From Escherichia coli (lineage in GTDB: Bacteria; Pseudomonadota; Gammaproteobacteria; Enterobacterales; Enterobacteriaceae): 64,000 nucleotides of DNA. The notes under the pieces were generated by a model, which did no database searches, was not told the DNA's origin, and saw only the letters and a list, made by a program, of their open reading frames with translations. This document shows positions 24,027 through 52,776 of the stretch, piece by piece; position 1 is the stretch's first letter; each line of letters begins with the position of its first letter. The DNA lies in NCBI RefSeq assembly GCF_013122565.1, contig NZ_CP053258.1, one strand, 5' to 3'. The translations under genes and the position numbers were made by a program.

Positions 24027-24052
24027 GACCAGGAGCGTTTCGGCTCCTGGTC
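24027..24052 (-). terminator. stem-loop immediately downstream of the UvrD-like helicase gene (end of the DISARM-like operon)
   Basis: gaccaggagc / gctcctggtc perfect 10-bp inverted repeat with 6-nt loop, 17 nt beyond the stop codon. Confidence 0.5.
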
Positions 24053-24068
24053 TGTTTCGGACATATTA

Positions 24069-26183
24069 TCAGTCAGCCACTAATAGCGGGCTAGGGATAC
24101 CAGATGATGAAACAAACAGCCCTTTTACGGCACGGGTTGCAGCCACATGCAGTAACGCGCGCTCATTAAATAATGCATCACGCTGTTCAACGGGATCATC
24201 GGATGCTAATGCTTTTATTTCCGGCACAACGCCTTCGTTAATTCCCACCAGGAACACATACTGGAACTCAAGCCCTTTAATACGGTGCATCGTTGCAACC
24301 CGCACGCCAGGGCGTGCATCGCTGTCACCGCTATCATTGCCTAAATTAAATGTCTCAATTCCGGCGTCATTCAGTGCTGATGCGTAGCGGTCACAAGCAT
24401 GTTTAGTACGCGCAGTAATGCAGATATCCTGAGAACGAACCTGATTCGCCAGCAATGCCTGAATTTGCTTGACGAGCGTTGCAGCCTCTTCTTTGAAATC
24501 TGCCGCATGCGTAATCATGGGCTTTTCCCCGTGCAGTAATGACAAATAATCATTACTGGTATCCGCTTCGCCATCGAGGTTATCAACCTTCACACCAGTT
24601 AACAGCCCAACAGCAAATTGACGCGTCTCTTCTGTGGTCCGATAGTTAATCTTCAATTTTTTACTGCGACGACCACGGACGTTAATACCACACTGACCAA
24701 GAACGACCTTATTGCGATAAATACGCTGATGCCCATCCCCGACAATAAACAGATCGTTGGGCGACTCGGGAACCAGGCTGCGAATAAGAGTAAATGCCGG
24801 GGCACCGATATCTTGAGCTTCATCGACCACAATACTGCTATAAGGTAGTTGAACCTGTTTTTCTTTAAACAGAACAATAGCCTCATGCATGGCATCGCCC
24901 ATTTCGCGCAGTTTGGCACGCGCCATTTGTGCTCTGAATTCTTCAAAGACTGGCCAGATTTTCGCCCGTTGAATACGGGATAACGCTGTACCACGTCCAA
25001 CCCGGCTGACTTTGAGGTATTCCTCCCGGGTGTAAACCGCATTTGGCTGGACAACGCGTTGCCACTCTTCAGCATAGAAATTGTCAGGTAGCCCCAGTTC
25101 GGCAGGTGCCTGCTGCAAGGCATAGTTCCAGCATTTGCGTCGCCCTTCATCGCTGTCGTATACCACGCGGAAATCATAACCGTGGCGTTTTAGTTGGTCG
25201 CTCATCCAGGCATCAATGTTAACGACGTCAATACGCGCCATCTCTTCTCGCGTACACAACCGCTGGAGATTAGCGCGAATATCTGCCGCCAGGTTACGCG
25301 TAAATGTCGTGAAAAGTACCTTCTTACCGGGTTTATCTGCCAGACGCTGAGATAACCACCGCGCACGGTGCATCGCAACAACCGTTTTCCCTGTACCTGC
25401 ACCACCCAGTACTCGTACCGGACCATTAGCGGGCGACTCCACCAGTTTTCGCTGGCTCGGATGCAGAAATACACGCCATTTTTCTAAAGGCGCATTAAGC
25501 ATCTGCAACAGCTCCTGTTCATTTTCAACGACATGGAAGCGACGTTTACTTCGTTCAATCGCCTCCATAAAGTCGTTGGTATCAACAGGCTCATCACGAT
25601 GATCGTTAAACTCTTCCAGCACTTCCTGGTAATCCAGCCCTTCTGCCAGCCAGTGCAGAGGTTCCCAGGCTTCTGCTGGCATTATGCTTTCAAGTTGATT
25701 AAGCCCGGCTTCATCGGTAAGCGCCATCACCTGATCAATAAAGACAGGCGGCACACCCAGGGCCAGAATCTGTTCCGCGCTGTAAGCTGCGAAGAGTTTC
25801 GGTTTATCAACCACCGTTTCCGCTGCCGGTTTGATATAGCTAATATCAATGACCTGAATCGCGCCGGTAACCGGGTGAATCGAACAATCATGCCGCCGCG
25901 CCCAGTCGTATGCTTCGTCGTGTTTATCCACCCACATCAGCATATACAGGGCACCCTGTTCAGGTTTCAGAACAATGCCGCGATAAGTTTGATCGATTCG
26001 CACCGAATGGACATTTTTACTGCGCGCATCGTGGATCTTTTCATAGTTAAGTCCATTACTGGTCGGGTCCTGACGGAATTTGGAGATGAATTCCTGCACC
26101 TTTTTTTGCTGTGCTTTTGGGATCCGCGCGAATGCGCCCAGAAAACCATCAGAAAGTGCCACCTTGGGCGTTTGCACCGTCAT
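24069..26183 (-). CDS. UvrD/Rep-type SF1 helicase with an uncharacterized ~200-aa N-terminal domain
   Basis: 704 aa; Walker A VLGGAGTGKTVVAMHRA, motif II IVVDEAQD, C-terminal VATMHRIKGLEFQYVFLVG; ATGA overlap with the upstream gene. Confidence 0.8.
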   Translation of the reverse strand: MTVQTPKVALSDGFLGAFARIPKAQQKKVQEFISKFRQDPTSNGLNYEKIHDARSKNVHSVRIDQTYRGIVLKPEQGALYMLMWVDKHDEAYDWARRHDCSIHPVTGAIQVIDISYIKPAAETVVDKPKLFAAYSAEQILALGVPPVFIDQVMALTDEAGLNQLESIMPAEAWEPLHWLAEGLDYQEVLEEFNDHRDEPVDTNDFMEAIERSKRRFHVVENEQELLQMLNAPLEKWRVFLHPSQRKLVESPANGPVRVLGGAGTGKTVVAMHRARWLSQRLADKPGKKVLFTTFTRNLAADIRANLQRLCTREEMARIDVVNIDAWMSDQLKRHGYDFRVVYDSDEGRRKCWNYALQQAPAELGLPDNFYAEEWQRVVQPNAVYTREEYLKVSRVGRGTALSRIQRAKIWPVFEEFRAQMARAKLREMGDAMHEAIVLFKEKQVQLPYSSIVVDEAQDIGAPAFTLIRSLVPESPNDLFIVGDGHQRIYRNKVVLGQCGINVRGRRSKKLKINYRTTEETRQFAVGLLTGVKVDNLDGEADTSNDYLSLLHGEKPMITHAADFKEEAATLVKQIQALLANQVRSQDICITARTKHACDRYASALNDAGIETFNLGNDSGDSDARPGVRVATMHRIKGLEFQYVFLVGINEGVVPEIKALASDDPVEQRDALFNERALLHVAATRAVKGLFVSSSGIPSPLLVAD

Positions 26184-29100
26184 TTGTCACCTCCGGACAG
26201 ATGTTGCAATGTATTTTCGTCAATTGGCCCGAATGCAACGTGCCAACCTCTGGTTGTGAATAATGGAATAAATTCTTGATTATCAATAATCAATGCCCAT
26301 TTTTGTGATGGCCAGGCGAGATCGGCTTCTGCAATAATTTCACCCTCATCATTTTGCAATTCGTAGCCGAGAGTCGGCGCAGAGAGAGAATGAGACTGAA
26401 GCAACGCGATCTCTTCAGCGCTTAATAAGCCAAACTCAATAATCTCAGCCCAACTTTCATCAGTCTCTGGTACTGCCTCTGGCGTTGCCGAAACTTTAGT
26501 GTCAACGCTTTCCTGCGGTAAATGCACGGCTTTACGGCTGGTAAAGGTCATATCCGGCAGGAACTGTAACAGGTTTACCAGTCGCCAGAAGCCATTGAGT
26601 CCCGCTTCATAACCGTCATCCTGCGTATAGCGATCGTCAAAACAGATATGCAAACGCAGCCAGCTGCGCATTTGTGCGACGCTGGTCGTCGGTTTAATGG
26701 CTTGTTGTGGTAACACCGAAGCCAGTTCAATAAATTGCTGCGATGAGTTACAGCTATCGAGTAAACCACCAAAGACAAACGGTTCGTCTGGCAAAAGCTC
26801 TGCTAGCCGCCAGGCTGGCGCGTTTTCCTGCATTTCATAGGCATACTTTTGTTTCGTTCCCGCGTCCTGTGACTTCTTCACATCCAACCACACCCAGGCA
26901 TGTGCAGCAGCCATTCTCTGCCATAACTGCGTTCTTCCGCCCGGATCGGCGAGATAATCCAGCAGCAGTGCAAAACTGTTACGTTCCCGGAACGACGCTT
27001 CAAGGGCCGCAAAGTTGGTATCGTGAAACAGGTTATAAAACTTAGGCTGTTTCATATCCGGGTTATGCCCAAGTCCCAGGACATCCTGAACATGTTTAAG
27101 CCCAGGCTCTTTGAGATCGGCCCACGTGACTGTCCACACCCAGAAATTACCGCTATCCCGAATCGCCTGGCGTTTTTGCACATCCTCTGCGACGCTATTT
27201 TTGTGGAACGCAAAGCCATCAAGGAAAATAGCCACCGGTTTAATGGCATCAGACTGCATAAGCGGATATAGCACGTAATCCGGGCGACAAGGGATCCCCA
27301 CCGCCTCTTTAGCGCCTAAATCCACCTGAGCTTTAAGATGCCAGCTCATCATCGGTTCGCTGCGGGTGTTAATAATCCACCCAGCGCCCTGATGCGCGTA
27401 ACTGCGACTGACAATCAGGTTTTTATTTTCTTGCAGGCAGCTAATAAACCGTTTTTCCAGCTCACTGCCCATCATGGCTTCGAGGGAAATGTTTTTGATG
27501 GAATCAATTACCCGTATCGAATCTCTTGCCTGCAAAATTTTCGCCAGCAAGAGACGCGCCTGATCGCGGGAGACATACTTCATGCGCCCACGGTCACGGT
27601 AAGCGTAAACGCAACGATAACAACCATCTTTATGCGTATCATTGTTGCAACTGCATTCCACTATTGCCTGATAGGCCAGTTCAAGTAATTTCAGCAAATT
27701 GTCGGGAGTGCGCATCAGCTCTTTAAGAGAACCAGTTCCCCCCGGGACGGTATCGTAAATCACCAGATACTGCCGCCAGGATTCGCCTTCATTTTCCGGC
27801 TCGCGGTACACAACGCCTTTCAGGTGATCGACATTCCCCTTGAAGTAATGCTTAAGGCCGAGCTGGATCGCCGCCCCAAGAGAAGCCTCCACGACACGGT
27901 CATTACTGTAACTGCTTACCGGGAGCAGAATACGCAACGCTTCTGACTCCAGCTGGCGATAGAGGTAGAGATAATCTTCGAACTTCGCCTTTTCCGGTTC
28001 CGTGCGATATTTGCAGCTCAAATCATGACGTGGTTCATGATCGCGAGGACGCTGCACCATGCCGCACCCGAGGCAAACTTTAAACCCGGTTCGCTTCTTC
28101 GCTTCTCCGGCAATCATCAACTCATTGGCATCATCCGCCATTTTGCCGAAGTTGATATCCCGCAGGGTGACTTTGCTTAAAAATTCAAAACCAAACGGAA
28201 CTTCGCCTTCCTCAATCGCGTATGCCGCCGATACATCTTCTTTTTCGAAACTAACCAATAGCTGACGCTGGAAGAAAGCAGGTTCACGGCTGTCGCTCTC
28301 GTCGCTGATCTGGCTATCACGTGCGCTGGCGCGGGCATAAACCTGGCGAAGTTTCAGCAGCGTGGTTTTTTGTCCGGCATCGGCCCACCCCGGTGTGCCA
28401 CATTTCGGGCAATATTTATGCTGGTCGCCCGTCTGGTCGATATTTTCGCTGTAGTTACAGTGGCTACAGATACGCCAGTTCTCCGGCTCAGAGACCTTCA
28501 GGTCTATCTGCTCAATTTCAACTTTATGCCCACCGGCATAGAAATTATTCAGCGGAGCCAGCTCAGCCAGCGCCGTTGATGCCGGGCGTTCATATTCGAA
28601 AGTGGTGTTTTGATATTCACGCGCTTCCCCGCCTTCTTTACGCCGCCAGAGCACAGAACGTAACGTAATACCGGCTTCCGGGAAGGCGTAGTTAGGCAGC
28701 AGCCCTTCATCCGTGAGGAAATTCAGCGTTTGCTTATTGTTGATTTGATTGACCAGCGCCATCAGCGCCTGTCGTTCTGAAGTTAACTCGCGCATATCGC
28801 TATCAAAGTTTTGATCGCGCGGCGCGTTCTCCAGTTTATCGATACTGCGCTTGAGCTTATCGATGCGTGAGCGCAAAGATTTGCGATCTTCCACCAGCAG
28901 TTTTAACGCTTCTTCGATACGCTGCACCAGCGAGCGTTGTCCTGGCGCGCCCTGAAGATAAGACAACAGCTGTTGGCGAGTTTCTGCGGCAAGATCGGGG
29001 AAGATCGCCGTAAATTGTGCAGCAATCTCCGCATGATGCTGTTCGATATATCGCAGTAAGTTATACGGAAAACCCGATTTACGCCCGAACTCCAGCTCAT

Positions 29101-32100
29101 CCAGCATCTGTTTGACGTTTTTACAGATAGCGGATTCTGGTACACCGGTTTTCACCCAGTTATCCATACAAAAAGCTGCCAGCTGGCGTTCGAGAATAGC
29201 CGTTGCATTGAGGAAGACGCCAGGAGCCTGCACCTGGCCCTGCATCATCTCCAGCGGTTCTTCAAAGAAAAACTGATCGTGCGGGTTCCCTTCTGCCACG
29301 GTAATGTTTAACGCGTTACCATCTTTACGACCGGCGCGACCAATACGTTGCAAGTAGTTGGCCTGAGCAGGTGGGACAGAACAGAGTAAAACGGTGGAAA
29401 GATCCCCAACGTCAATACCCATCTCCAGCGTCGGTGTTGCCGACAACAGGTTGATATTCCACGGTTGGTTGCCGCGGTAGAACGATTTTTCGGTGGCTTC
29501 GCGATCTTCACGGCTAAGCAGCCCCGTGTGTTCTGCGCCCTGCACGCGCGCGATGTCCATGTTCTCCCAACGCCAGGTCGCCATATTGTCGACTTCCTGG
29601 TAACGACCTTCACAACGTAAAGAGAGACAAGGCGCATTACGCCACTGCCAGCCTTGATCGGCCGGAGCCCGGACAACCTCACGGCAACATGAGCAATTAA
29701 GCTGAACGACGTCACGGCTCACCACCAGCGCCGAAGGCACCAGTCCCCAGGCTTCACGCCCTTTGGTGTCAAAATCTTTTACTACTCCGGCTATTTTCAA
29801 CGCCGTAAACAGGCGTCGTAACACCGTTTCCGCAACGCTACTGATAAACAGATTATTGCCGTTACTCAGCGTGCGATTGATCCAATGCTGATACCAACTG
29901 GGGTTAGACTTCGCGCCAATCAGGCGATGGAAACCATTAATTTTTTCAAACGACGCATAAGCCGGTTTACGCGTTTTCGGACCGATAGAAGGCATATAGC
30001 GCGAGGTACGCTCTTTTTGCGTCATCATAAAGGTCGTGCCATCACGGCGATAACTTTCGAACGCCGGATGCATAACGGCCCCGGCCTGGCGTTGATACCA
30101 GATAACCCCCAGCGCCAGGTGCGCTACCTGCTCGACGCTCACACCGGACATCTCATCACCCAGCTCTTCACAAAGCTGTTGATGCAGGGCGGTAATTGCC
30201 GGATTAAAGCGTTCTTTATCCACTCCGGCAACGGCATAACCGGTGGCTTCCAGCGTACGTCCGATACGCGCGCGCAGGGTAAATTCGCTGTACACCTCCC
30301 AGTCGAGGCGCAGGGAAACCAGCTCCGGCAGATCGGAGTTCTCCGCCAGTTTGCCTTCATTTTTCAGCGTCTGATAATCATTCAGCCACTGCATATTTGG
30401 TGCGATGAAGTTCGCTGCAAAATGAGCATCGTCCGGTGAACGTTCACGCGTTTGTTGGCAAACACGCGCCGCGAACGCATCCAGCGGTAATGTCTCTTTT
30501 TCGCCAAGAACACTGGCGATTTGCCCACGAATCATCAGCGGCCAGGTACGGGCAGTAAAGAAGCTGGCACGATGCGCGGCGTCTTGTACCGAGTCAGAAA
30601 ACGTAATCAGCTTTTTATGTTCGTTGAACTGGCTGCCATAAAGCTGGTGAATCATCACCGCCGACAAACTAGCAGCCCGTGACCCCAGGATCGAAATCCC
30701 CTGTTTGCTGTTGCAGTACGGGCATTCATTAGCAAACTCCAGCTCGTCCTTACGCTCTTTGAGCATATCCGGGATCAGTACCTGCAACAGTTCCGTATGA
30801 CCGCAATATCCACACTGGACGCTGGACTGTCGGTTCAGTTTCAGACAGGTAGGGCATAGTTTCTGGTGTGCGCCACTGACCGCTTTTTCGTTGTTATCCG
30901 GGAAAGCAAGGACGATGGAGCGCCCTTTTTCAAAGAACTGGCGATAAATGCCGTCGAGGTCTGTTTCCAGCTGAACGCTTTGCCCATGACGCAGGCTGGC
31001 CCAGCCGGTTGCATGGCAGTCACGGCAGTGGATAACCGGCAAATAGTGTTCGCGATCTTCCACCGCCACATCATCGGCAAACACCAGTCTCGGCGTTTTC
31101 GCCACGCTGGCGACCAGACGACGCATCTCACGAAGCCACAACTGGGAACGCAGTTGCACAAACGGCAACACCGGGCGCGCTTTCTTCGCCTGGAGACGTT
31201 TTTGCCGATCGTGGTCCGTTTCCGGTACTTCGAGACGTGCCTGCGCGATCAGCGCCAGAATGCTTTGCAGCACGCTTCGGGCATGGTCGGCGCTTTCTGC
31301 CAGCATGACCTGGAGATTTTCCAGACACTCTCGTTCAGAGAGGATACCGCCTTGCAGATCATGGAGTAAGACATGCATCACGCTGTGGCGGCGTAACAGT
31401 GACCCCAGCGCAATACGCTTTTCACGCCCGTCGTCGCTCTCCAGATCGTCCGGAAGCTGCAAGTCGCTGTCGGGGAACCACAAAGGAATTTGCCCGTTGA
31501 GATACGCCACCGGGGTAGCGTAACTCTGCGGGTCCAGGGCCGAAGCGACCTCCGGCCCCGGATACTGACTGTACGCAATGGCGTAATCCTGCAAGTACTC
31601 CGCTGCCGTGTAGCGATCTTCGCGAATAACGGCGTCATCGGTAAACGGCTGGTCAAAGATTGTTTTTGCGTAATCGAGCAGTTGCCCCAGTTCGTCGCCG
31701 ACGGTAGCTGATGTCCCGACGCAGGCGAATCGTTGGTTATCCACACCTATGTGATGCTTCAGACGTCGCACCAGACAGGCCAGATCCGACCCCTGCGCGC
31801 CATCAAACGTATGCAATTCATCCACGACCAGGTAACGCAATGAACCGGGCTGGTTGTAACGCCAGAGCGGCTGATCGCCAGGGCGCATCAGCAGGTAGTC
31901 GAGCATTTTGTAGTTGGTCAACAGGATGTCCGGCGGGCTTTCGCGCAGCGTGTGCTTGCAGGTAATGACCTTTTCTGCCGACATTTTTTTGCTGGGTTCG
32001 ATTTCGCTGTCGCCGACAAACAGGCCGACGGTCACCTTGCCATGCAGTTGTGGATCGCTGGCGATGGTTTTGGCGAAACGGCTGGCCTGATCGGTTGCCA

Positions 32101-32521
32101 GGGCGTTCATCGGGTAGATGATAATCGCTTTAACCCCGGCTTGTGACGCGCCCGCGCAGTGGTTGAGCAGCGGGAACATAAAGCATTCTGTTTTACCGGA
32201 GCCGGTACCGGTAGCGACCAGCGTCGGCTGTGGCGCGTCGCTTCCCAGACGCTGAAATGCCCGGGCCTGATGCGCGTGCGGCGGGAACGGCAGCGTCAGA
32301 TTAGGGAAGAAATTCAGCGGTAAGTCACTTTTACGAAACGGCAACTGGGCGGAAAGGTATGGTCCTTTCAGCAGCGTTTCGGGCTGGGCCAGAAATTGCT
32401 CCAGCATTGAGACATTATCGTTATTCTCACCGTTAAACAGCGGGCTGTTTAGCGGGAACGCCGCCCGTAAAAAGGCGGCAACGCTGTCGGCGACCTGCCG
32501 ACTGACAACGGACGGCAACAT
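26180..32521 (-). CDS. giant helicase with C-terminal Cys-rich Zn-ribbon region (DUF1998-like); fused DrmA/DrmB-like, DruE-like
   Basis: 2113 aa; Walker A GTGSGKTECF, DEAH-type motif II VVDELH, helicase C region (QRIGRAGRKDG), several CxxC pairs (CSHCN...CPKCG, CLGCG, CYRCVYAY); 1-nt stop/start overlap with the methyltransferase gene. Confidence 0.8.
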   Translation of the reverse strand: MLPSVVSRQVADSVAAFLRAAFPLNSPLFNGENNDNVSMLEQFLAQPETLLKGPYLSAQLPFRKSDLPLNFFPNLTLPFPPHAHQARAFQRLGSDAPQPTLVATGTGSGKTECFMFPLLNHCAGASQAGVKAIIIYPMNALATDQASRFAKTIASDPQLHGKVTVGLFVGDSEIEPSKKMSAEKVITCKHTLRESPPDILLTNYKMLDYLLMRPGDQPLWRYNQPGSLRYLVVDELHTFDGAQGSDLACLVRRLKHHIGVDNQRFACVGTSATVGDELGQLLDYAKTIFDQPFTDDAVIREDRYTAAEYLQDYAIAYSQYPGPEVASALDPQSYATPVAYLNGQIPLWFPDSDLQLPDDLESDDGREKRIALGSLLRRHSVMHVLLHDLQGGILSERECLENLQVMLAESADHARSVLQSILALIAQARLEVPETDHDRQKRLQAKKARPVLPFVQLRSQLWLREMRRLVASVAKTPRLVFADDVAVEDREHYLPVIHCRDCHATGWASLRHGQSVQLETDLDGIYRQFFEKGRSIVLAFPDNNEKAVSGAHQKLCPTCLKLNRQSSVQCGYCGHTELLQVLIPDMLKERKDELEFANECPYCNSKQGISILGSRAASLSAVMIHQLYGSQFNEHKKLITFSDSVQDAAHRASFFTARTWPLMIRGQIASVLGEKETLPLDAFAARVCQQTRERSPDDAHFAANFIAPNMQWLNDYQTLKNEGKLAENSDLPELVSLRLDWEVYSEFTLRARIGRTLEATGYAVAGVDKERFNPAITALHQQLCEELGDEMSGVSVEQVAHLALGVIWYQRQAGAVMHPAFESYRRDGTTFMMTQKERTSRYMPSIGPKTRKPAYASFEKINGFHRLIGAKSNPSWYQHWINRTLSNGNNLFISSVAETVLRRLFTALKIAGVVKDFDTKGREAWGLVPSALVVSRDVVQLNCSCCREVVRAPADQGWQWRNAPCLSLRCEGRYQEVDNMATWRWENMDIARVQGAEHTGLLSREDREATEKSFYRGNQPWNINLLSATPTLEMGIDVGDLSTVLLCSVPPAQANYLQRIGRAGRKDGNALNITVAEGNPHDQFFFEEPLEMMQGQVQAPGVFLNATAILERQLAAFCMDNWVKTGVPESAICKNVKQMLDELEFGRKSGFPYNLLRYIEQHHAEIAAQFTAIFPDLAAETRQQLLSYLQGAPGQRSLVQRIEEALKLLVEDRKSLRSRIDKLKRSIDKLENAPRDQNFDSDMRELTSERQALMALVNQINNKQTLNFLTDEGLLPNYAFPEAGITLRSVLWRRKEGGEAREYQNTTFEYERPASTALAELAPLNNFYAGGHKVEIEQIDLKVSEPENWRICSHCNYSENIDQTGDQHKYCPKCGTPGWADAGQKTTLLKLRQVYARASARDSQISDESDSREPAFFQRQLLVSFEKEDVSAAYAIEEGEVPFGFEFLSKVTLRDINFGKMADDANELMIAGEAKKRTGFKVCLGCGMVQRPRDHEPRHDLSCKYRTEPEKAKFEDYLYLYRQLESEALRILLPVSSYSNDRVVEASLGAAIQLGLKHYFKGNVDHLKGVVYREPENEGESWRQYLVIYDTVPGGTGSLKELMRTPDNLLKLLELAYQAIVECSCNNDTHKDGCYRCVYAYRDRGRMKYVSRDQARLLLAKILQARDSIRVIDSIKNISLEAMMGSELEKRFISCLQENKNLIVSRSYAHQGAGWIINTRSEPMMSWHLKAQVDLGAKEAVGIPCRPDYVLYPLMQSDAIKPVAIFLDGFAFHKNSVAEDVQKRQAIRDSGNFWVWTVTWADLKEPGLKHVQDVLGLGHNPDMKQPKFYNLFHDTNFAALEASFRERNSFALLLDYLADPGGRTQLWQRMAAAHAWVWLDVKKSQDAGTKQKYAYEMQENAPAWRLAELLPDEPFVFGGLLDSCNSSQQFIELASVLPQQAIKPTTSVAQMRSWLRLHICFDDRYTQDDGYEAGLNGFWRLVNLLQFLPDMTFTSRKAVHLPQESVDTKVSATPEAVPETDESWAEIIEFGLLSAEEIALLQSHSLSAPTLGYELQNDEGEIIAEADLAWPSQKWALIIDNQEFIPLFTTRGWHVAFGPIDENTLQHLSGGDK

Positions 32522-37437: not shown

Positions 37438-37439
37438 GA

Positions 37440-40298
37440 TTAACCCTCCGCTCCGGTGATAACAGCAATTACCTGAATGTAGGGTTCTTTTTCAGTCGTC
37501 ATGGTGTCCTCAATCCATTCGATATAGCTGTCAAAATTGTGTTCGATTTCGCGTTGTCTCTGCTCTTTACGGCTCTGCTTGACTGACAATTGCTGTTTGT
37601 TATCGGCAAAATCCAGCTCAAGTTGGCTCAACTGCCGCCCACGCAAAACGTCCAGCTTTTGCAGATGCTCGTTCAGTTGCTGGTTAATGTGCGTTTCAAA
37701 CGCATTCCGATCATGGATAAATACCTCCCGGGCATGCGCAATAGCCGCTTCCAGTAAATCCTGCTGGCGCTGGTGATTACGATCTTTACCGCCGCTGTTA
37801 GTCAGATTGTTACTCAACTGCGGATGACGTTGTAAAAACTCAGCGAATGGCTGACTGCCGATTAGCGATTCACGGTCAAAGCTCACCACTATCCACGGGT
37901 TCACCATCGGATGTGATTTACGGTTCGGGAATAACCCGGAAAGAATGAAGTGATCTTCATCGGGTTCAAGCAGGTATGGCAGACGGATAACCGGTGCCTG
38001 ATGACGACCAAAAGCCGAAGAGATTTTATCGTCCAGCCACTGCACTACCGGGTTGATTTGCCAGAGATACTGCACATCGGGCCAGGCATGTTGCTCACCG
38101 CGAGCGCGCGCAATCGCGTCGGTGATGACGGTTTTATCCTGACTTAAATAGAGCTGCCAGTTCTCCGGGGCAATTTCAGGCGGTAGCTGGTTGAAGCGGC
38201 GGCGTAACTCCTCCGGTGCCACCAGCGACAAGGTATTATCAGGCAAGGTTTCATACTGGATAGTTTGACCACTGGCTTTCAGGTAACCCAATGCTCTTTC
38301 ACAGTACGCCTGTTCGCTGGCAAACAAGCTGGTGTCTGTTTCGGTAACCATTGAGGCATCGCTGGAAACCGCACTGCATATTTCGCCAAACAGATCATGT
38401 TCGGCGCTTTCCGAGACGTTGCTGTTCAGCAGTTGATCAAACAGGCTGGCACCATCATCCTGCATCATGAACTCTGCAACCTGCTCTTCTTCCTCTTCCT
38501 GGGTAAATTTGCCGGTAAACTCCGAACTGTCCCCAATGTTCTTCTGCGCCTGTTCGTCTTTGTTGATCAACACTTCCAGTACGCGCATATCGCCATTGAT
38601 CTGTGGTTCGCTGGCCTCGGTAAGCAGATAGCGGATTTGAGGCTGATGTTTTTGCCCATAGCGGTCAATACGCCCGTTACGTTGCTGGAATACCATCAAC
38701 GACCACGGAATATCAAAGTGAATCATTTTGTGGCTAAGGTGATGCAAGTTGATCCCTTCAGATGCCACATCCGAACAAACCAGAAGACGCAACGGAGACT
38801 GCGTTTTACCAAAGGCTTCTACGGTTTCCATCAATACCGTATCGCCCTGATCGCCGCGCAGCGTGGCGATCTGGTCATCTTTCAATTTCAGATCCGCTCG
38901 CAGTTGCTGTTCGAGGAACTCCAGCGTTTTAATACTTTCGGTGAAGATCACCAGGCGATCTTCCGTGTTATTGGCTTTCCAGGCGAGGTCTTTTCGGATG
39001 GTGTCGAGCAGCAACTGGTATTTGCTAAACTGGCTGGCATCAATGTTATTCAGCGCCAACAGCAATGACTCCAGTTCGTTGATCTGGCTCTGGCTATTAT
39101 GATCTTTACGGCTCTCAAGACGCTTCAGACGATTCGCCACTACGCTGGCACACGCCATCGGGCTGGAAAATAGCGCTTTTTCGAGGGTTATCTTGAACAG
39201 ACGACCTTTGTTAGACTGGGCCTGTTCATCGTCATCATCACGGAACTGGCTCTCAACCAGGCGACGGTATGCTTCTTCTTCGGCACCAGATGCCAGGCGA
39301 GTCAGTTTGACAATATTGCGCTCGGGGAACTCGCCGGACATCTGATCTTTCACGTCTTTTTTGAAGCGACGGACAACCAGATTTTTATCGGCAAAATCGG
39401 CGTATTCATACTCTTTCGGGTTGGCGATCGCCGTCGGGTCAAGCATGTTCATCAGGCTGGCAAAACTTTCAGCCTTACCATCATGCGGTGTTGCTGAAAG
39501 CATAATCAGCGTATCGCTGCGCCCGGCGAGCAGTTTTGCCAGTTTACTGCGTAACGAACTGGTTCCACGTTCTGCGACGTTATGGGCCTCATCAATGACA
39601 ATAATATCCCACCAGGCATTTTCCAGATGGTGACGATATTCAATGTCTTGTTTCAGCGTATCGATGGAGATAATGGTCTTGTCAAAATAGTGGAACGGGT
39701 TGTGGTTGGTTGGGATGCGGTTACGCACCTTTTGTAAACCAGCAGAATCCAGGCGGGTCAATGGGATCGCAAAACGGCTCCAGAACTCCTTCTGGAATTG
39801 TGTCAGCATCGATTTAACCGCCAGAACCAGAATACGTTTTCCGCGCCCACGACGGATCAGTTCCGAAACCAGAATACCGGCTTCCAGCGTTTTACCCAGA
39901 CCGACAGCGTCGGCAATGAGTATCCGCTGGCGCGGTTGTGCCAGCGCCATCCGCGTAGGATCGAGCTGAAACGGCATGGAATCCATCGCCGCCAGATGAC
40001 CAAAATGGACTTTACTGTCTGTCGGTACGCGTTGGCGTAACTGACTTTCAATATACAACTGTGCCGCTTGATAATTGGCGGATTCATCTTCCACCAAATG
40101 CGTTTTTGCGGGATCAAGGATCTCTACTTTTTGTTCCAGTTTGGTCAGAAATAACCCTTCTTTACCGCGCACCAGCTCTGAAATACCATCGCAGGTCAGC
40201 AAATACCCACCATCACCACTGTCATCCGCCCGGCGAATACGCCATTCGGCATCACGAATAACCACCCGCATACCAGGTGCATAATTTTGCTTATTCAT
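37440..40298 (-). CDS. SNF2-family helicase/ATPase (DrmD-like)
   Basis: 952 aa; Walker A DAVGLGKTLEAG, DEAH-box IVIDEAHN, helicase C motifs (HFDIPWSLMVFQQRNGRIDRYGQ). Confidence 0.8.
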   Translation of the reverse strand: MNKQNYAPGMRVVIRDAEWRIRRADDSGDGGYLLTCDGISELVRGKEGLFLTKLEQKVEILDPAKTHLVEDESANYQAAQLYIESQLRQRVPTDSKVHFGHLAAMDSMPFQLDPTRMALAQPRQRILIADAVGLGKTLEAGILVSELIRRGRGKRILVLAVKSMLTQFQKEFWSRFAIPLTRLDSAGLQKVRNRIPTNHNPFHYFDKTIISIDTLKQDIEYRHHLENAWWDIIVIDEAHNVAERGTSSLRSKLAKLLAGRSDTLIMLSATPHDGKAESFASLMNMLDPTAIANPKEYEYADFADKNLVVRRFKKDVKDQMSGEFPERNIVKLTRLASGAEEEAYRRLVESQFRDDDDEQAQSNKGRLFKITLEKALFSSPMACASVVANRLKRLESRKDHNSQSQINELESLLLALNNIDASQFSKYQLLLDTIRKDLAWKANNTEDRLVIFTESIKTLEFLEQQLRADLKLKDDQIATLRGDQGDTVLMETVEAFGKTQSPLRLLVCSDVASEGINLHHLSHKMIHFDIPWSLMVFQQRNGRIDRYGQKHQPQIRYLLTEASEPQINGDMRVLEVLINKDEQAQKNIGDSSEFTGKFTQEEEEEQVAEFMMQDDGASLFDQLLNSNVSESAEHDLFGEICSAVSSDASMVTETDTSLFASEQAYCERALGYLKASGQTIQYETLPDNTLSLVAPEELRRRFNQLPPEIAPENWQLYLSQDKTVITDAIARARGEQHAWPDVQYLWQINPVVQWLDDKISSAFGRHQAPVIRLPYLLEPDEDHFILSGLFPNRKSHPMVNPWIVVSFDRESLIGSQPFAEFLQRHPQLSNNLTNSGGKDRNHQRQQDLLEAAIAHAREVFIHDRNAFETHINQQLNEHLQKLDVLRGRQLSQLELDFADNKQQLSVKQSRKEQRQREIEHNFDSYIEWIEDTMTTEKEPYIQVIAVITGAEG

Positions 40299-40488
40299 CG
40301 GTTTTTCTGTCTATTTGGGGCAGTGGCGGTAACGTCATCCTGAAAAATGTGGCGCGGCACACTGCGATAAAAAAGAGGGCCTTAAAGATATCATGAAGGC
40401 CCCCGGCAAAGTGACAAAATGGGAGGGAATGCGCATAAATTGCGCATGATTTTCAAACAAAAATTATTAAAAAGTGAGCTGGGTCAAC

Positions 40489-40514
40489 TCCCCTGGAAGA
40501 TATCCCCAGGGGAG
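40489..40514 (-). terminator. stem-loop between druE and the DISARM-like operon
   Basis: ctcccctgg / ccaggggag 9-bp inverted repeat 8 nt past the druE stop; a T-rich stretch follows about 15 nt later on the transcribed strand. Confidence 0.4.
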
Positions 40515-40521
40515 CAATTAT

Positions 40522-43500
40522 TTATCCAGCGATAACATAACTCCTAAGGTCATTACCCGGGGCAACAGCTCGCGATCGCGTGTTTGCCAGCCGTTCAACT
40601 TGCTGCGGTACTCGCAGAGCAAAATCAAATAAGGTGTCTTCAATACAGCGCCAGTAGCTAAGCCCCATGTCGAGCAGGACATAATGCTGACTGCCATCGC
40701 TGAAGGTGACTGTCAGTTCTCGTCCATGCTCCGTACTCTGGTTATCCCCCGTTAACCAGCTAATTGCTCCCGGCCACGCAGGCCCCAGATATCCTTCTTC
40801 AAGTAAAGTGGTCACAACCTGCTGACGATCTTCCTCATTAAGCCACGCGTTATAGAGAGCGTCGTGTTGGCGAGAGTTGTAATCCAATTTTTTGACGCAA
40901 ACAGTGAGGCTGGCGCGTTCCGCCATTCCCTGTTCAACCAGCTCGGTTAAGATTTCACCTAACAAACGCGCCGTGAATGGGCTATTAAGATAACGATCGC
41001 TGTACTCAACATGCGTTATCTCTTTGTGGCGGGTAAATGCCTGCTTCCAGCCAGCGTGCTGTTGCGTGACTAACGACCAGAAACGCGAACCAAAACCTTC
41101 CAGCGGCCCGTCCAGTTGTTCACAGAGATTGATGCGCACCGCCCCGGTGGGTAAGGCGGGCAGTAAATCTTCTGCACTTAAGGTCTGACCCGAGAAGGTT
41201 TTTCCGGACGTTCCTTTAAGTGTCACTACTGGTGAAGACGCACTTTGTCCCCATAATTCACCAGGGGCAACGGTAGCGCTGTCGTCTGCGGCCCACTGTT
41301 GGCTTTGCCCTTCGCGAGTCACCTGCGCAAGCCAGCGCCCCTTTCCTTGCATGAGTTGCGCAGTGGCAATGGATTTCACTTGTAAGCGTCCTCCCGGCAT
41401 CGCCGCCAACGCGGAAAGCTGATGTCTGGAGCTATCAGTTAAGTTTTCCAGCGGCGTGGCCACCAGCAACTCAACATTCCCACCGGAGGAAGCAAACTGG
41501 AGCAACTCTTTAAATAATGGCCATTGGGCAAAGTCCCACTGTTCCTGCGGCCCCGCAAGAACCAGCGAGCAGGAGTCATAAATCTCGCTGTTCAGGCATT
41601 GCGCAATACGTAAACTCAGAGGGTTAGTTTCAACCCGGCTACCATCGCCGAAGTACTGATATTCTGGCGCGAGGTTAAGTCGCTGCAACCGTACATTGGT
41701 AAGCAGGGTTAATGCATGGTGACGATCTAATCTGTTGACATAATGCTGACTGTCGTAGCTGAGCAAGCAGTGGTGACAGAATTTATCGCAACTGCAATCG
41801 AGCAATTTTCTGGCGTAATTAAAGACATCAGCCCAATGGTCGATCAATTGCACTGCATAACCTGCACCACCCGCATTATTGTCGTAAATGAAGATGGAAT
41901 ATCCGGTATAGCCATTGATATCGCGCGCTTGCTGCGTCGTCACGCCCAGCTCAGTATTTTCGATACCCAATTTATGCGCTAACCCTTCACGCAAAGCGAC
42001 CGCAAGGGAACGCGCGGCAACCTCATCACGGATCAACAGGCCATTATCATCATTGAGTTGCAGCTCAACCATATCTGTACGACTGCTATACCCCAACCAC
42101 AGATCTTTATGCACATGACCGTGGCACAATTTATTGCTCCCCTGACGATCGTTACTGCCCCCTCGCAACAGGTAATGCGTATTTTCCCGCTCTGGGTTCT
42201 TTAGATTTTCAGGGGTACGCTGGGGTTGAGTTTGAGATTCTGCCCGACCACATGAGAGGCAAATTGCGTAGCCGTGCCCAAATTCCCCTTCACTGAAGTG
42301 GAACAATTCCCCACTATGGCTAAAACGGTAACGTCCTAGCCCAGCATCGGGTAAAGAAACCCACACCGAAGACGGTACAAGAACACGTGGATCTTTCCAG
42401 GGAAGTTGTGCAGGCATGGATACATCATTATGTGCCTGATAACGAATATCTGTCGCAAAACCAACAGGCTGTAAATAACGCTTCACATCAAGTTGCTGTA
42501 TATCCGCTTTGCAGTGACTACATTCGACAGGACGGGTAGTACTGGTTGCCCCCGCACCACATTTACGGCAATGCCAGAACCACGGAATATGATGATCGCC
42601 TGACAGCTCCTGCCCGCTGGCAAGTACCTTGCCAAGCATAATGCCCGAGGAACGATATACTTTTCCGCCCAATACCACATCTGCACCAGGCGCATACTCG
42701 CGTAATGCTGTAGGTAGATCACGGCTGGGCAATTTTTCAATACGACGAGAAAAGCTTTCTCCCCCTTCATTAGGGTCAGCCTGAGTGGCTTTTATTGCGC
42801 GACGTTTTTCCAGCTCATCTGCCGTCAGATAATTGAAATTGACTACGCCAACCGGGAAACCATGCCCCGGCAGGAACGCTTCACTAATGAGTTTAGAAAA
42901 CAGATATGCACCGCGATAATCACGAAGCTGATAAGCGATGGCTTTACCTGCTGGCGTTTCTTCCCACGCGCTGTTATCCGCCTTCAACGCTTCGATATTT
43001 TCCAACAGTATCGCAAGTTGGCTTCTCCAGCGGATATCAACCTGCTGCATCATTGCTTGTGTGCGGGTCAAGAGCTGGGTTGCCGTCAATGACATCAGGA
43101 CGGTTCCCTGAGTAAGGCGTTTAAGTTTATCCGCCAGCTGATCGGCCTGGTGATTTAACCAATGGAGAAAACGAAGACACTGGCTCTCATCACCTTCAAA
43201 GAACCATTTGCAACTCAGTTTTGTCGCATCAGGAACTTCAGCTCGTAAAAACAGACCTAAAACCAGGGCATTAACATGTCGTTGAACAATGCTACTGCTC
43301 CCAAAACGAACCCGTGGCGCACTGGCAGTAGTGTTGAACGCCCAGAGGGGGTCTTTGAATACCTCCATTCCATGCGCCGTGTTTTTACATAACGTAATGG
43401 CAGCAGATGCACTCTCTCCACGACGCCCCGCGCGACCTGCACGTTGCAAATAATTTGCCGGCGCTGGAGGAACGTTGTTCATTGCCACCAAACTCATACC

Positions 43501-46500
43501 ACCAATATCCACCCCCATCTCCATGGTCGTGGAACAGTTCAGCACATTAACTTTGCCTGACTTAAATTGTTTTTCATTAAACTGGTTCTGCTCAGGCGTT
43601 CTCTGCGCAGAGTGTTCCTCCAGACGATACCAGCTATCTTTCAGGGCCAGTCGGTCGCTGCGAGTAGACCATAATCCTTCCTCGCGGGCATGTTGAATCA
43701 GCGCATTACTTTCCAGCCACTCCAGACGTTCTTCTCGGGCGATTTCTCCACCACCAGACAAACGCCAGTGACGTACAGGAAGCTCAGGCATTTCAATCAA
43801 CACTGCTTTTTCAGGTGCAATTTCTTTGCTACCCGGCAAATACGGAGAGTATCCCAGCAACGTGACGTCTAACGCACGTCGAGTATAGGGGCAACGCCAC
43901 ACTTGCTTTGGACTGTAAAATTCAGCTTGTTGTTTAATATCCAGCTGATAACCCGACTCAAACTGACGTAAGCAGGGTCGAATTGCATCCCAGACCTCAA
44001 TCATTAAGTGGTTAACTAACGATTTCCAGTGAGCCTGCTCAGGTTGTATTGCCGGAAAGACTGCGATTAATAGCTTAATGACCCGGTTATAATGGCGATC
44101 GCGTATTTGTGGCCAAAGTTGATCACGTTTCTGCCCTTTGTTTTTTTTATCTGGCCCCTGGAGCATTTTTACCGGGAAACGTGCCCCCATCCAGCGAGGG
44201 TATTGCTCGTTTTCGTAAAAAACGGCACTGTTTTCACGGATAAAGAAATCAAGAGTAATCTTCAATAAATTACGCCATTCCGCTAATTGCTTATCGGGAT
44301 CGGGTAATAATGTCTTCCAGTCCTGCGGGCAGGTTGTAACTTTATCAATAAATGGATAGTGAATGGCTACCAGACCCAGACTTTCGAGGGTCCAGGCATT
44401 TTTAGGGCGGCGACCAAACTCGCTGTATAAACAAAAATCTGCAAACTGTTGTTTAGTAAGATCAAGCCCAGACAATTCTTTAAAACTGCCTCTCATTCTA
44501 TCGGCAAGGTCCACACTGCCAACCAGCTGTTCAGACAGCGTTTGCCATGACATGGTTTTCTTCTGCTGATTGCCAGAGTTAGCCTGAAGTATTTGCATCG
44601 CTTCAGCATGATCCGGGCTTAAGGAACTCACCATCGGCTCAATAATTTTAAGTGCCTGAATGTCCGCCGGGCTAAGCTCCTCATTCGCAGCCATCGCTTT
44701 TTTCAGCGCGTCGATGGAATTTTTTAAAGGGAGGACAGAAAACTGGCTAATAACTTTCTCTAACAGTGCACAGTGTGCCGGGCTGAGTTTTGCTGAAGGC
44801 TCTGTAATATTTGCCAGCTCCTGGTAACAAAGAGCTCGCAACGTCGCTTTATCGGCATCCTGCTGTAAGCGAGCTGAAATGCGAGCGGTACCCTGACGCG
44901 AATCCGTAAAGGTGAGCAAGCGTCGACCATTAAACGGTCCTAACTGCTCTTCTCTTGTTTGCGGTAATGGAGAAAACTCCAGCAGAGTAGGAATAATTTC
45001 ATTTAAAAAAAAGGGCGCGCCGAGCCGAAGCGGACGGAATAAAGGATTATTTTTCCGTTGAGTGTCACCACAGCACACACAAGCAAAGGAGTTATTGCGT
45101 CCCTCACCTCGAGATTCCGGTCTTAACAGGTTTATTTCATAGTGCTTTTGCGCTTCACTATCAATTTTCCCCGCCGTCGTTTCTTCCAGTGAAATGATAT
45201 ATTTTTCACCATCGCTCGCAATCAGACGATCAAATTGAGAGTTATTGTCTAATTCGTCGTTGTCTTCATCTTCAGAATAAACATCTACATCAAGAGCAAA
45301 CTCATCCACTTCGGCAGCGGCGGGTTGCGCTACCAACCAGTTCGTTCCATCACCGCGCATCTCCTCTTTGGCAGACAAATAAGCTGAACCACACCCGGAG
45401 CAACGTAAAACTTCAAATACCGGCGCACCACAGTCACAATATTGGCGCTGCTCAAACCATACCTGACCAAATGGCCAGTCACTCTGATTTAATTCATGTG
45501 CTTTATGTGAGCATTGTTTGTTTGAACATGCCCATAGACCCGCCAGTGTTCTGATAAACCCATGCATACGTAATGGCGTAAAAGCCAGTTCACCTTCTCG
45601 CGATCTTGCCATTAGATCGAGGAGTTGCAGTAGCTCACGGTGATTAATATCTGGCCAGGTTCTTCTGGCAACATTGAGCAACTCACTCAAACGTACTGCC
45701 TGCCGTCCGGGATGAGTTAACGCCTGACGCAATTGCTGGGCCACACGGTAATGACAAAGCTGTTGGTAAAGATCCTGAGGGCTCAGGGATTTAAGAGAAG
45801 TTAAAGATGTGGGGTATTCATGACGAATCAGCGACTCCGATACCCGCGGTATTTGTCGATAACCGCGAACCACTTTGACATCACGTTCTGTAACGCCCGC
45901 GAGATCAGCGACAAATTTAGCAAGCTCCTTATTACCTTCAGGAGAGTCTTCACCAATAGTGGCAGAGGTCGCGATAATCTGCACAGGTTTATCTGTGCCG
46001 GGTCCAACATTGAAAGCCTGCATAACACGACGTAAAAGCAGCGCTAACTCAGCAGCCTGAGAACCAATATAACTATGGGCTTCATCCAGGACGATATACT
46101 TTAACATCCCCTGAGACTTTTCGATGATTGGGGCATCTTTACGACGAATCAGCATATATTCCAGCATGGTGGTATTCGTCACCATGATGGAAGGTGGTGC
46201 TTCATAAATGGCTTCCCGACTCAAAGCTTGTTCAGGTACTTTCAACTGATCTTCCTGAATTTCGTATTTGGTATGCCGGGTTTCGCCATTATATAGCGCG
46301 AAGCGTATTTTCCCCTTAAATCCGCGCGTCCATTCGCGAAGCCGCTCCTGTTGGCTGTTAATTAATGCATTTAACGGATACAAGAAAATAGCTTGTGTCC
46401 CTGTTAGTGACTGGCGGGTCGATTTTTGCTGACGAATAAGATCTTCCAGAACAGGTACCATAAAGCATTCTGTTTTCCCGGATCCCGTACCGCTGCTCAC

Positions 46501-46845
46501 TAACAAGGATTTTTTGTCTTCCAGAATCGTTCGCCACGCAGTGAGTTGATGACGAAATGGCACTGGCGCTTTGCTCAATGCATCAACCAGCGGGCTGGAG
46601 ATCAGCTTGTCCCGCAAATCCTCCATTGTTTCATCCGCAGGCATCCAGCCGAATGTACTTTCGAATACCGGGTCTGCAAGCAGTGACCCCTCCTGACCGG
46701 GAGGCTGAAAATATTGTGATTCCAGATAATGAGTCAACGACTTGCTCCGCAATGCCAACTGACTTACCACCGACCTCACCGCACGCTGATGAAGCTGATT
46801 TAGAAGTGGCGCATAATGCAGTTGCTGAACGTCCATCAATGACAT
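40522..46845 (-). CDS. druE: Druantia DruE: giant helicase with Zn-ribbon/DUF1998-like region
   Basis: 2107 aa; Walker A GTGSGKTECF, DEAH motif VLDEAH, helicase C region QRAGRAGRRGE, CxxC clusters; paralogous to the 2113-aa protein at 26180..32521. Confidence 0.8.
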   Translation of the reverse strand: MSLMDVQQLHYAPLLNQLHQRAVRSVVSQLALRSKSLTHYLESQYFQPPGQEGSLLADPVFESTFGWMPADETMEDLRDKLISSPLVDALSKAPVPFRHQLTAWRTILEDKKSLLVSSGTGSGKTECFMVPVLEDLIRQQKSTRQSLTGTQAIFLYPLNALINSQQERLREWTRGFKGKIRFALYNGETRHTKYEIQEDQLKVPEQALSREAIYEAPPSIMVTNTTMLEYMLIRRKDAPIIEKSQGMLKYIVLDEAHSYIGSQAAELALLLRRVMQAFNVGPGTDKPVQIIATSATIGEDSPEGNKELAKFVADLAGVTERDVKVVRGYRQIPRVSESLIRHEYPTSLTSLKSLSPQDLYQQLCHYRVAQQLRQALTHPGRQAVRLSELLNVARRTWPDINHRELLQLLDLMARSREGELAFTPLRMHGFIRTLAGLWACSNKQCSHKAHELNQSDWPFGQVWFEQRQYCDCGAPVFEVLRCSGCGSAYLSAKEEMRGDGTNWLVAQPAAAEVDEFALDVDVYSEDEDNDELDNNSQFDRLIASDGEKYIISLEETTAGKIDSEAQKHYEINLLRPESRGEGRNNSFACVCCGDTQRKNNPLFRPLRLGAPFFLNEIIPTLLEFSPLPQTREEQLGPFNGRRLLTFTDSRQGTARISARLQQDADKATLRALCYQELANITEPSAKLSPAHCALLEKVISQFSVLPLKNSIDALKKAMAANEELSPADIQALKIIEPMVSSLSPDHAEAMQILQANSGNQQKKTMSWQTLSEQLVGSVDLADRMRGSFKELSGLDLTKQQFADFCLYSEFGRRPKNAWTLESLGLVAIHYPFIDKVTTCPQDWKTLLPDPDKQLAEWRNLLKITLDFFIRENSAVFYENEQYPRWMGARFPVKMLQGPDKKNKGQKRDQLWPQIRDRHYNRVIKLLIAVFPAIQPEQAHWKSLVNHLMIEVWDAIRPCLRQFESGYQLDIKQQAEFYSPKQVWRCPYTRRALDVTLLGYSPYLPGSKEIAPEKAVLIEMPELPVRHWRLSGGGEIAREERLEWLESNALIQHAREEGLWSTRSDRLALKDSWYRLEEHSAQRTPEQNQFNEKQFKSGKVNVLNCSTTMEMGVDIGGMSLVAMNNVPPAPANYLQRAGRAGRRGESASAAITLCKNTAHGMEVFKDPLWAFNTTASAPRVRFGSSSIVQRHVNALVLGLFLRAEVPDATKLSCKWFFEGDESQCLRFLHWLNHQADQLADKLKRLTQGTVLMSLTATQLLTRTQAMMQQVDIRWRSQLAILLENIEALKADNSAWEETPAGKAIAYQLRDYRGAYLFSKLISEAFLPGHGFPVGVVNFNYLTADELEKRRAIKATQADPNEGGESFSRRIEKLPSRDLPTALREYAPGADVVLGGKVYRSSGIMLGKVLASGQELSGDHHIPWFWHCRKCGAGATSTTRPVECSHCKADIQQLDVKRYLQPVGFATDIRYQAHNDVSMPAQLPWKDPRVLVPSSVWVSLPDAGLGRYRFSHSGELFHFSEGEFGHGYAICLSCGRAESQTQPQRTPENLKNPERENTHYLLRGGSNDRQGSNKLCHGHVHKDLWLGYSSRTDMVELQLNDDNGLLIRDEVAARSLAVALREGLAHKLGIENTELGVTTQQARDINGYTGYSIFIYDNNAGGAGYAVQLIDHWADVFNYARKLLDCSCDKFCHHCLLSYDSQHYVNRLDRHHALTLLTNVRLQRLNLAPEYQYFGDGSRVETNPLSLRIAQCLNSEIYDSCSLVLAGPQEQWDFAQWPLFKELLQFASSGGNVELLVATPLENLTDSSRHQLSALAAMPGGRLQVKSIATAQLMQGKGRWLAQVTREGQSQQWAADDSATVAPGELWGQSASSPVVTLKGTSGKTFSGQTLSAEDLLPALPTGAVRINLCEQLDGPLEGFGSRFWSLVTQQHAGWKQAFTRHKEITHVEYSDRYLNSPFTARLLGEILTELVEQGMAERASLTVCVKKLDYNSRQHDALYNAWLNEEDRQQVVTTLLEEGYLGPAWPGAISWLTGDNQSTEHGRELTVTFSDGSQHYVLLDMGLSYWRCIEDTLFDFALRVPQQVERLANTRSRAVAPGNDLRSYVIAG

Positions 46846-50195: not shown

Positions 50196-50406
50196 CCTGC
50201 CTTCCTTTGATACAATTCGTAACAGGTTACTATCATCATAAAAAAGCTCAACCCGATGAACTCGCTAAAAATGAGACAAATCATTTATATCTCGAAAAAA
50301 CTTGTTACAATCATGAGCGCTACACCGAACTTAACCATATAAATTATGTGTGTTTTGTTTATTTTTTAAACGATTACAACTATCCATTATTTACACAGGT
50401 ATCAAA

Positions 50407-52059: not shown

Positions 52060-52065
52060 TCGATC

Positions 52066-52773: not shown

Positions 52774-52776
52774 GAG

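Follow-up and report, generated by a model that had tools for sequence, protein, structure and literature searches.

How did two giant helicase genes come to lie in one genomic island of Escherichia coli, and are they recent copies of each other, exchangeable parts of different defence systems or proteins that share only generic motifs? The window examined here is the whole 64,000-nucleotide stretch of E. coli contig NZ_CP053258.1 (assembly GCF_013122565.1), and its set of open reading frames (ORFs), taken over the full 64 kb, includes six co-directional minus-strand ORFs across 24069-50195. Two of them encode proteins of about 2,100 amino acids (aa), ArmC (26180..32521, 2113 aa) and DruE (40522..46845, 2107 aa); both ORFs are intact, without internal stops, and 8,000 bp lie between them. 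A sequence-only reading had taken the two for paralogous helicase/Zn-ribbon proteins and had suggested modular exchange of the helicase core between DISARM-like and Druantia systems. Our analysis indicates that the island very probably contains two anti-phage systems, both complete and each organised on its own, one of them Druantia type III, the other ARMADA type II, each around one of two anciently diverged paralogues of the YprA family. ARMADA, the 'disARM-related Antiviral Defense Array', was defined by Bell et al. 2025 (PMC12458937).

Extent of homology between ArmC and DruE

The five motifs on which the claim of paralogy had been based each occur once per protein and in identical order in ArmC and DruE: GTGSGKTECFM(F/V)P starts at aa 105 in ArmC and aa 119 in DruE, YP(M/L)NAL at 136 and 156, (L/V)TN(Y/T)xML(D/E)Y(L/M)L(M/I)R at 201 and 222, L(R/K)Y(L/I)V(V/L)DE(L/A)H at 228 and 248, and LxRR(L/V) at 250 and 270. 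All five fall inside the RecA1/DEAD lobe of ArmC (aa 77-280; 31682..32293, minus strand). Similarity extends well past this lobe. BLASTP recovered two collinear high-scoring segment pairs (HSPs), one of 211 aa over the DEAD lobe (34% identity, E 3e-30) and one of 722 aa that extends from the second RecA lobe as far as the end of DUF1998 (23%, E 3e-26). The Pfam families DEAD, Helicase_C and MZB (MrfA Zn-binding domain, formerly DUF1998) were found in both proteins, in ArmC at aa 84-278, 993-1066 and 1549-1638, respectively, and both thus have the RecA1, RecA2 and four-Cys MZB by which the YprA/MrfA family is recognised.

Each protein has its own series of ~2,100-aa homologues, down to about 36-40% identity, and profiles of full-length homologues (23 for ArmC and 19 for DruE) were aligned with each other. 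Local hhalign returned one alignment of 1381 columns (ArmC 75-1676 against DruE 103-1696, 22% identity, E 2.6e-77), which spans RecA1, a ~700-aa Zn-rich insertion, RecA2, OB-CON and DUF1998/MZB collinearly; overall protein identity is 21-22%. In a forced global alignment of the two (hhalign), the domains of DruE correspond to aa 92-307 (RecA1), ~1048-1177 (Helicase_C) and ~1612-1716 (MZB/DUF1998), followed by a C-terminal region of aa 1717-2107. Identity in this alignment is highest in Helicase_C (38%) and RecA1 (34%, ArmC aa 77-280 against DruE aa 92-307), then in MZB (26%), OB-CON (20%), the helical part of the insertion (20%), the remainder of the inter-lobe region (19%), the Zn-rich part of the insertion (16%), the helical/coiled-coil domain (16%) and the N-terminal region (15%). 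The last ~430-450 aa reach 13% in the forced alignment and were not detected locally.

The insertion between the RecA lobes of ArmC (aa 281-989; 29555..31681, minus strand) carries conserved CxxC Zn modules and is collinear with that of DruE at 16-20% identity; the fold names given to its parts are BrxA-like, beta-barrel ZBM and MarR-like (Bell et al., PMC12458937). Examples of cysteines that are invariant in the family alignments, and collinear between the two families, are C499/C502, C556/C559, C600/C603, C943/C946, C1352/C1355, C1371/C1374 and C1483/C1486 in ArmC, and C440/C445, C470/C472, C482/C485, C589/C592, C1426/C1429, C1442/C1445 and C1529/C1532 in DruE. The four-Cys clusters of MZB are likewise invariant (ArmC C1623/C1625/C1634/C1637; DruE C1684/C1686/C1690/C1693). 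In ArmC, the C-part of RecA2, the helical/coiled-coil domain, OB-CON and DUF1998/MZB together occupy aa 990-1660 (27542..29554, minus strand). A Vsr-like PD-(D/E)xK nuclease domain follows (aa ~1685-1815; 27077..27469, minus strand), with D1748, D1768, G1769 and H1773 invariant, and then two further domains.

Judged from their sequences, ArmC and DruE are true but ancient paralogues within one helicase + DUF1998 family (YprA), as the claim of two such proteins within 8 kb had it, and the Zn-ribbon label is justified by the collinear cysteine pairs. The further statement that the proteins are divergent elsewhere holds for the raw sequences but not for the profiles, in which homology runs continuously to DUF1998/MZB and only the last ~430-450 aa are unrelated, with a Vsr-like PD-(D/E)xK fold in ArmC and, according to the literature, PLD domains in DruE. 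The two systems differ in their C-terminal nuclease modules and in their partner genes, not in the helicase core.

Two complete systems around related helicases

The segment 40522..50195 is a predicted complete Druantia type III system, druH-druE. Both genes, druH (46836..50195, minus strand, 1119 aa, YjiT family) and druE (minus strand, helicase-nuclease), gave full-length PADLOC matches (DruH3, 2549.6 bits, aa 3-1119; DruE3, 2182.5 bits, aa 9-2105), and DruH also scored 983 bits against the NCBIfam YjiT_fam model (cutoff 150). With phmmer, DruE matched chain Y of PDB 9tu7 at 4888 bits over aa 3-2107, and the window's protein is essentially the solved DruE; its match to YprA/MrfA (PDB 6znp) had an E value of 1.4e-19. 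Two PLD-like domains have been described in the C-terminal region of DruE (PMC13192584), and 2026 preprints with DruE structures report that the protein loads onto 3' single-stranded DNA (ssDNA), forms higher-order assemblies and has PLD nuclease activity (PMC13192584 and companions). It has been shown by others that DruE unwinds and cleaves long DNA and that DruH is needed. Some RefSeq records name DruE a 'motility-regulating DEAH-box RNA helicase', and its N-terminus is assigned to Pfam YjiV_N. These names, like the NCBIfam name YjiT_fam for DruH, are at odds with the established role of DruE as an effector of Druantia.

The segment 24069..40298 is a predicted ARMADA type II cassette, armA-armB-armC-armD, with all genes on the minus strand. 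It has the published gene order of a SNF2 helicase (BrxHII/RapA-like), a PglX-like methyltransferase, a YprA-like helicase and a GajB-like UvrD helicase, and all eight published functional residues examined are in place. ArmA (37440..40298, 952 aa) is a SNF2/DrmD/BrxHII-like helicase whose best PADLOC match was DrmD (332.8 bits) and which scored 349 bits against NCBIfam DISARM_DrmD, under the cutoff of 610; its Walker A K136 and Walker B D236 are at the published positions. ArmB (32521..37437, 1638 aa) resembles the N6-adenine DNA methyltransferases PglX and DrmMI, matched the PADLOC models for type IIG restriction enzyme-methyltransferases (935.7 bits) and DrmMI (192.7 bits), and has G605 in the S-adenosylmethionine motif and N971 in NPPW as published. 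ArmC has K110 and D234, together with the DEAD, Helicase_C and DUF1998/MZB domains and C-terminal Vsr-type PD-(D/E)xK nuclease by which ARMADA type II helicase-nucleases are recognised. ArmD (24069..26183) is a GajB-like UvrD helicase (124 bits, K266 and D454 in place) with the N-terminal RelE-like domain of ARMADA II, here a RelE/YafQ-like fold. That this N-terminus might be a NERD domain, as the PADLOC label 'NERD+UvrD' for ArmD would have it, was rejected: the match covers the helicase part only.

The same searches place ArmC relative to its possible relatives. Its best PADLOC models were DruE3 (347 bits, a partial match in two stretches), DruE1 (323 bits), DruE2 and DruE4; the DpdJ model reached 86 bits and that of DrmA 49 bits. 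Its closest solved structures were DruE (9tu7, E 4.5e-48), a large helicase (9wae, E 1.6e-25) and YprA/MrfA (6znp, E 3.8e-20); generic DEAD-box proteins in the PDB matched at E 1e-6 or weaker, and DrmA was not retrieved with ArmC among PDB proteins at E<=0.001 (phmmer). From these hidden Markov model (HMM) and phmmer scores, and from a published tree, ArmC appears closer to DruE than to DrmA. The earlier distinction between DISARM-like and Druantia partners is also borne out, with DrmD and DrmMI similarity in ArmA and ArmB (333 and 193 bits) and a DruH of 2549 bits beside DruE.

The cassette was found in 520 of the 5,426 complete E. coli genomes searched, at 95-99% nucleotide identity. In both annotated E. 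coli chromosomes examined (2/2) it has druE-druH and zorA2-zorB2-zorE as flanking genes.

Alternative relationships and nucleotide similarity

The sequence-only reading had also regarded the two genes as a possible substrate for recombination, and had raised a check for recent duplication. A recent duplication or gene conversion within the island, leaving direct repeats for homologous recombination, would fit two genes of near-equal length in the same orientation and 8 kb apart. Nevertheless, megablast gave no match between armC and druE, and blastn gave a single stretch of 34 nt at 91% identity (armC 32177..32210, druE 46459-46492, minus strand), which encodes Walker A (GTGSGKTECF). The longest exact run inside it is 18 nt, AAAACAGAATGCTTTATG. 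To be efficient, RecA-dependent exchange in E. coli is usually said to need at least about 23-27 bp, and the shorter run counts against homologous recombination between armC and druE. We also searched the 5,426 complete genomes for a synthetic druE(5')::armC(3') deletion junction. Its halves are matched separately in 537 E. coli genomes, and in none of these is the junction intact. Recent duplication or gene conversion was rejected on the blastn and exact-match analyses, and with protein identity of only 21-22% and separate homologue series for ArmC and DruE we consider it extremely unlikely. As far as can be predicted from these comparisons, the two helicase genes are neither a recent duplication nor a realistic recombination substrate.

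At the other extreme, similarity might be confined to generic superfamily 2 (SF2) helicase motifs, with no specific relation between the proteins. The highest identities do lie in RecA1 and Helicase_C, but the 722-aa HSP runs from RecA2 through DUF1998, the 1381-column alignment includes the ~700-aa insertion with its Zn modules, and Pfam MZB is present in both proteins. Moreover, DruE exceeds YprA as the PDB match of ArmC by about 28 orders of magnitude, far above generic DEAD-box proteins, and this explanation is almost certainly wrong.

Two other identities could be proposed for the cassette. The order SNF2-methyltransferase-helicase/DUF1998 parallels drmD-drmMI-drmA-drmB, and the DrmD and DrmMI matches of ArmA and ArmB could mark a bona fide class 1 DISARM with fused DrmA and DrmB. 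However, DrmA and DrmB are not separate genes here, DrmA models reach at most 49 bits on ArmC as against 347 bits for DruE3, ArmA remains under the NCBIfam DrmD cutoff, no PLD (DrmC) gene is present in the cassette, the fourth gene is of a UvrD/RelE-fold kind absent from DISARM, and a published tree places ARMADA apart from DISARM (PMC12458937); we regard a true DISARM as very unlikely. Alternatively, the 2113-aa protein might be a second DruE, of a new Druantia subtype, given that its best PADLOC models are all DruE models and that it shares the DruE chassis. Against this, the DruE3 match is partial (347 bits in two stretches, compared with 2182 bits for the true DruE), the neighbours are SNF2, methyltransferase and UvrD genes of DISARM/BREX-like character with no DruH, DruA-D or DruM/F/G partner beside it, ArmC homologues lack the Pfam family YjiV_N (PF27116) that is among the precomputed assignments of DruE homologues, and the C-terminal nucleases differ in kind. 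A second DruE is, if anything, slightly harder to credit than a fused DISARM.

We therefore return to two separate systems, Druantia III and ARMADA II, with related helicases at their centres. Two points weigh against this interpretation: the greater closeness of ArmC to DruE than to DrmA derives from HMM and phmmer scores and a published tree, and the idea that ArmC would work like DruE is drawn from 22% identity and collinearity.

Possible mechanism and the question of modular exchange

ArmC and DruE share a chassis in which RecA1 is followed by a large Zn-rich insertion, RecA2, a helical domain and the OB-CON-DUF1998 'canopy'; the C-terminal nucleases attached to it are different, two PLD-like domains in DruE and a Vsr-like PD-(D/E)xK domain in ArmC. 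ArmC might be an ssDNA translocase-nuclease like DruE that cuts by means of its Vsr-type domain. DNA discrimination would probably be supplied, in the manner of DISARM and BREX, by ArmB as a methyltransferase with a hypervariable specificity segment and by ArmA as a SNF2 motor, and ArmD may add a UvrD-type motor with a RelE-fold domain.

In ArmB, binned identity to the copy in E. coli PapRG-06-5 is 100% outside two segments, at aa ~1101-1150 (33988-34137, 74%) and aa ~1351-1450 (33088-33387, 32-40%), which are probably specificity regions of target-recognition-domain-like (TRD-like) character. These segments agree with the account of Li et al. (10.1101/2025.09.22.677730), in which the island's variable gene is armB.

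The suggestion that the helicase core was exchanged is right in part only: DISARM-like partners and a Druantia-like helicase do form a mosaic, but it is the core that is conserved and the nuclease and partners that differ, and the event is ancient. According to the published phylogeny, the helicase core is common by descent within an ARMADA-Druantia clade (PMC12458937). The mosaic may have originated either by module exchange or by vertical divergence. One motor re-used with different nucleases and partners bears on how defence systems evolve, and two cooperating paralogous helicase-nucleases have a bearing on phage therapy.

Comparison with known systems

That one island carries two related giant helicases, one of them with DISARM-like partners, is already known from the literature. 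Bell et al. reported ARMADA helicases to be closest to Druantia helicases, with ArmA and ArmB common to DISARM as a 'missing link', and ARMADA II defence to be non-abortive and to need four genes, the ATPase motifs of ArmA, ArmC and ArmD and the NPPW motif of ArmB (PMC12458937). The same nine-gene locus is O-island 172 of enterohaemorrhagic E. coli (EHEC) EDL933, for which the homology of DruE and ArmC has been stated explicitly and synergy found in the native host (Li et al. 2025, 10.1101/2025.09.22.677730). Synergy between Druantia III and ARMADA II has been shown for a subset of phages, and phage resistance that needs all four arm genes has been published for near-identical E. coli orthologues (PMC12458937; 10.1101/2025.09.22.677730). 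The present work adds independent confirmation, a domain-by-domain identity map, the negative result on recombination and an observation on the C-terminal domain of ArmC that is given below.

The window's cassette agrees with the ARMADA II of NCTC 12900, ATCC 8739 and EDL933 OI-172 in its four genes, their order, lengths and catalytic positions. At 95-99% nucleotide identity to E. coli ARMADA copies (99.1% to ATCC 8739 over the tested armC segment), it shows essentially no system-level difference from published ARMADA II, apart from its own armB variable segments. Compared with DruE (9tu7), ArmC has the same chassis from RecA1 to DUF1998 but lacks a YjiV_N family match and PLD domains, has the Vsr-like domain and two more in their place, and is accompanied by ArmA, ArmB and ArmD, whereas the partner of DruE is DruH. 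Class 1 DISARM has similar SNF2 (DrmD-like) and N6-adenine methyltransferase (DrmMI-like) partners in the same order and a helicase + DUF1998 module; in ArmC, however, helicase and DUF1998 are fused and much nearer to DruE, and the cassette lacks a PLD gene and has an extra UvrD/RelE-fold gene. The founding family member MrfA/YprA (6znp) shares DEAD, Helicase_C and OB-CON-MZB but is only ~750 aa long, without inter-lobe insertion, fused nuclease or defence partners.

The 90%-identity cluster of ArmC has 3981 members, with a 100% identical match, and that of DruE has 3983. For Vibrionaceae homologues ~50% identical to ArmC and to DruE, the longest contigs are equal (e.g. 216,404, 35,742 and 34,129 bp), which hints that armC and druE travel as a pair far outside E. 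coli.

The C-terminal domain common to ArmC and ZorE

The last ~90 aa of ArmC (aa 2024-2113; 26183..26452, minus strand) have a homologue in the C-terminal extension of ZorE, a protein encoded in the same island by the Zorya type II operon zorA2-zorB2-zorE (50350..53880, plus strand, named from the RefSeq annotation of orthologous loci). BLASTP gave 40% identity over 57 aa (E 3e-8), an HMM of the ArmC C-terminal domains matched ZorE aa 279-339 (53611-53793, plus strand) with E 6.8e-13, and in the opposite direction the PADLOC and NCBIfam ZorE models matched ArmC aa 2021-2096. Neither in DruE nor in DruH was an ArmC-type terminal domain found.

A profile search found 1,485 representative proteins with an ArmC-type C-terminal domain, and in all 150 of the matches listed the domain ends no more than about 35 residues from the C-terminus. 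Most of the mid-length matches checked were N-terminally truncated ArmC-like proteins, so that length diversity overstates the diversity of architectures. In Enterovibrio sp. ZSDZ42 (L005 567-9815), armB and armC are separated by a UvrD-like gene, two small ORFs and a ZorA/ZorB/ZorE-like operon, and in Shewanella goraebulensis (L006 5001-9989) a gene for a 1662-aa SACS/NOV_C protein occupies the same position; the gene order of ARMADA II is not always strict. Both the nested ZorE-like and the nested SACS/NOV_C protein end in the ArmC-type domain. So does a 598-aa NERD protein at a third locus (L007 1-11797). A split DrmA/DrmB-like pair, made up of a 1036-aa helicase and a 646-aa MZB protein, is encoded there, with the NERD gene downstream of it at a distance of a few genes. 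Upstream is a gene for a DruE of 2090 aa (Pfam YjiV_N), which puts this YprA-centred locus adjacent to Druantia.

The terminal domain may conceivably be a common module for the coupling of YprA-helicase systems with accessory effectors, either by docking or by recognition of a common substrate, although we hold this to be rather unlikely. If it were true, the ZorE extension would reflect association with ARMADA and not with Druantia. In the available passages of the literature on the ZorE extension, it has been linked to Druantia association and no link to ArmC was found; the homology between the terminal domains of ArmC and ZorE may be the only element here that is new.

Layout of the island and its flanks

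Within the arm cassette neighbouring genes overlap by 1-4 nt or leave a gap of 2 nt. Start and stop codons overlap by 10 nt in druH/druE (46836-46845; 1 nt with the RefSeq start), by 1 nt in armB/armC (32521) and by 4 nt, ATGA, in armC/armD (26180-26183). These overlaps suggest that translation may be coupled inside each system. The two systems are separated by the druE-armA intergenic region (40299..40521, minus strand), in which consensus scans found a terminator-like site at 40490-40476 and, upstream of armA, a sigma-70-like promoter TTGTCA-16-CATGAT at 40417-40390, both of them consensus matches only. Close behind druE the sequence shows a strong hairpin (CTCCCCTGG...CCAGGGGAG) and a second, terminator-like one with a T-run. 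The hairpins and the promoter-like site suggest that ARMADA might be transcribed separately, and they fit the report that ARMADA was cloned and active on its own promoters (Bell et al., PMC12458937).

The zor operon is divergent from druH and is followed by a full-length nanM-like ORF (54091-55197). On the other side, uxuA is the immediate neighbour of the island, and similarity to the E. coli core stops at 23219 (flank 22914-24069); in E. coli PapRG-06-5, by contrast, uxuA is separated from armD by gntP, the fim operon, nanC and nanM. No tRNA genes were found across the window, which gives no support for a tRNA integration site. The right flank (57278-62849) carries genes that matching E. coli records name as an AbiEii/AbiGii toxin, DUF4942, DUF932 and inovirus Gp2 family proteins, and these mobile-element genes are consistent with the satellite-like 'moron' modules reported beside such islands by Bell et al.

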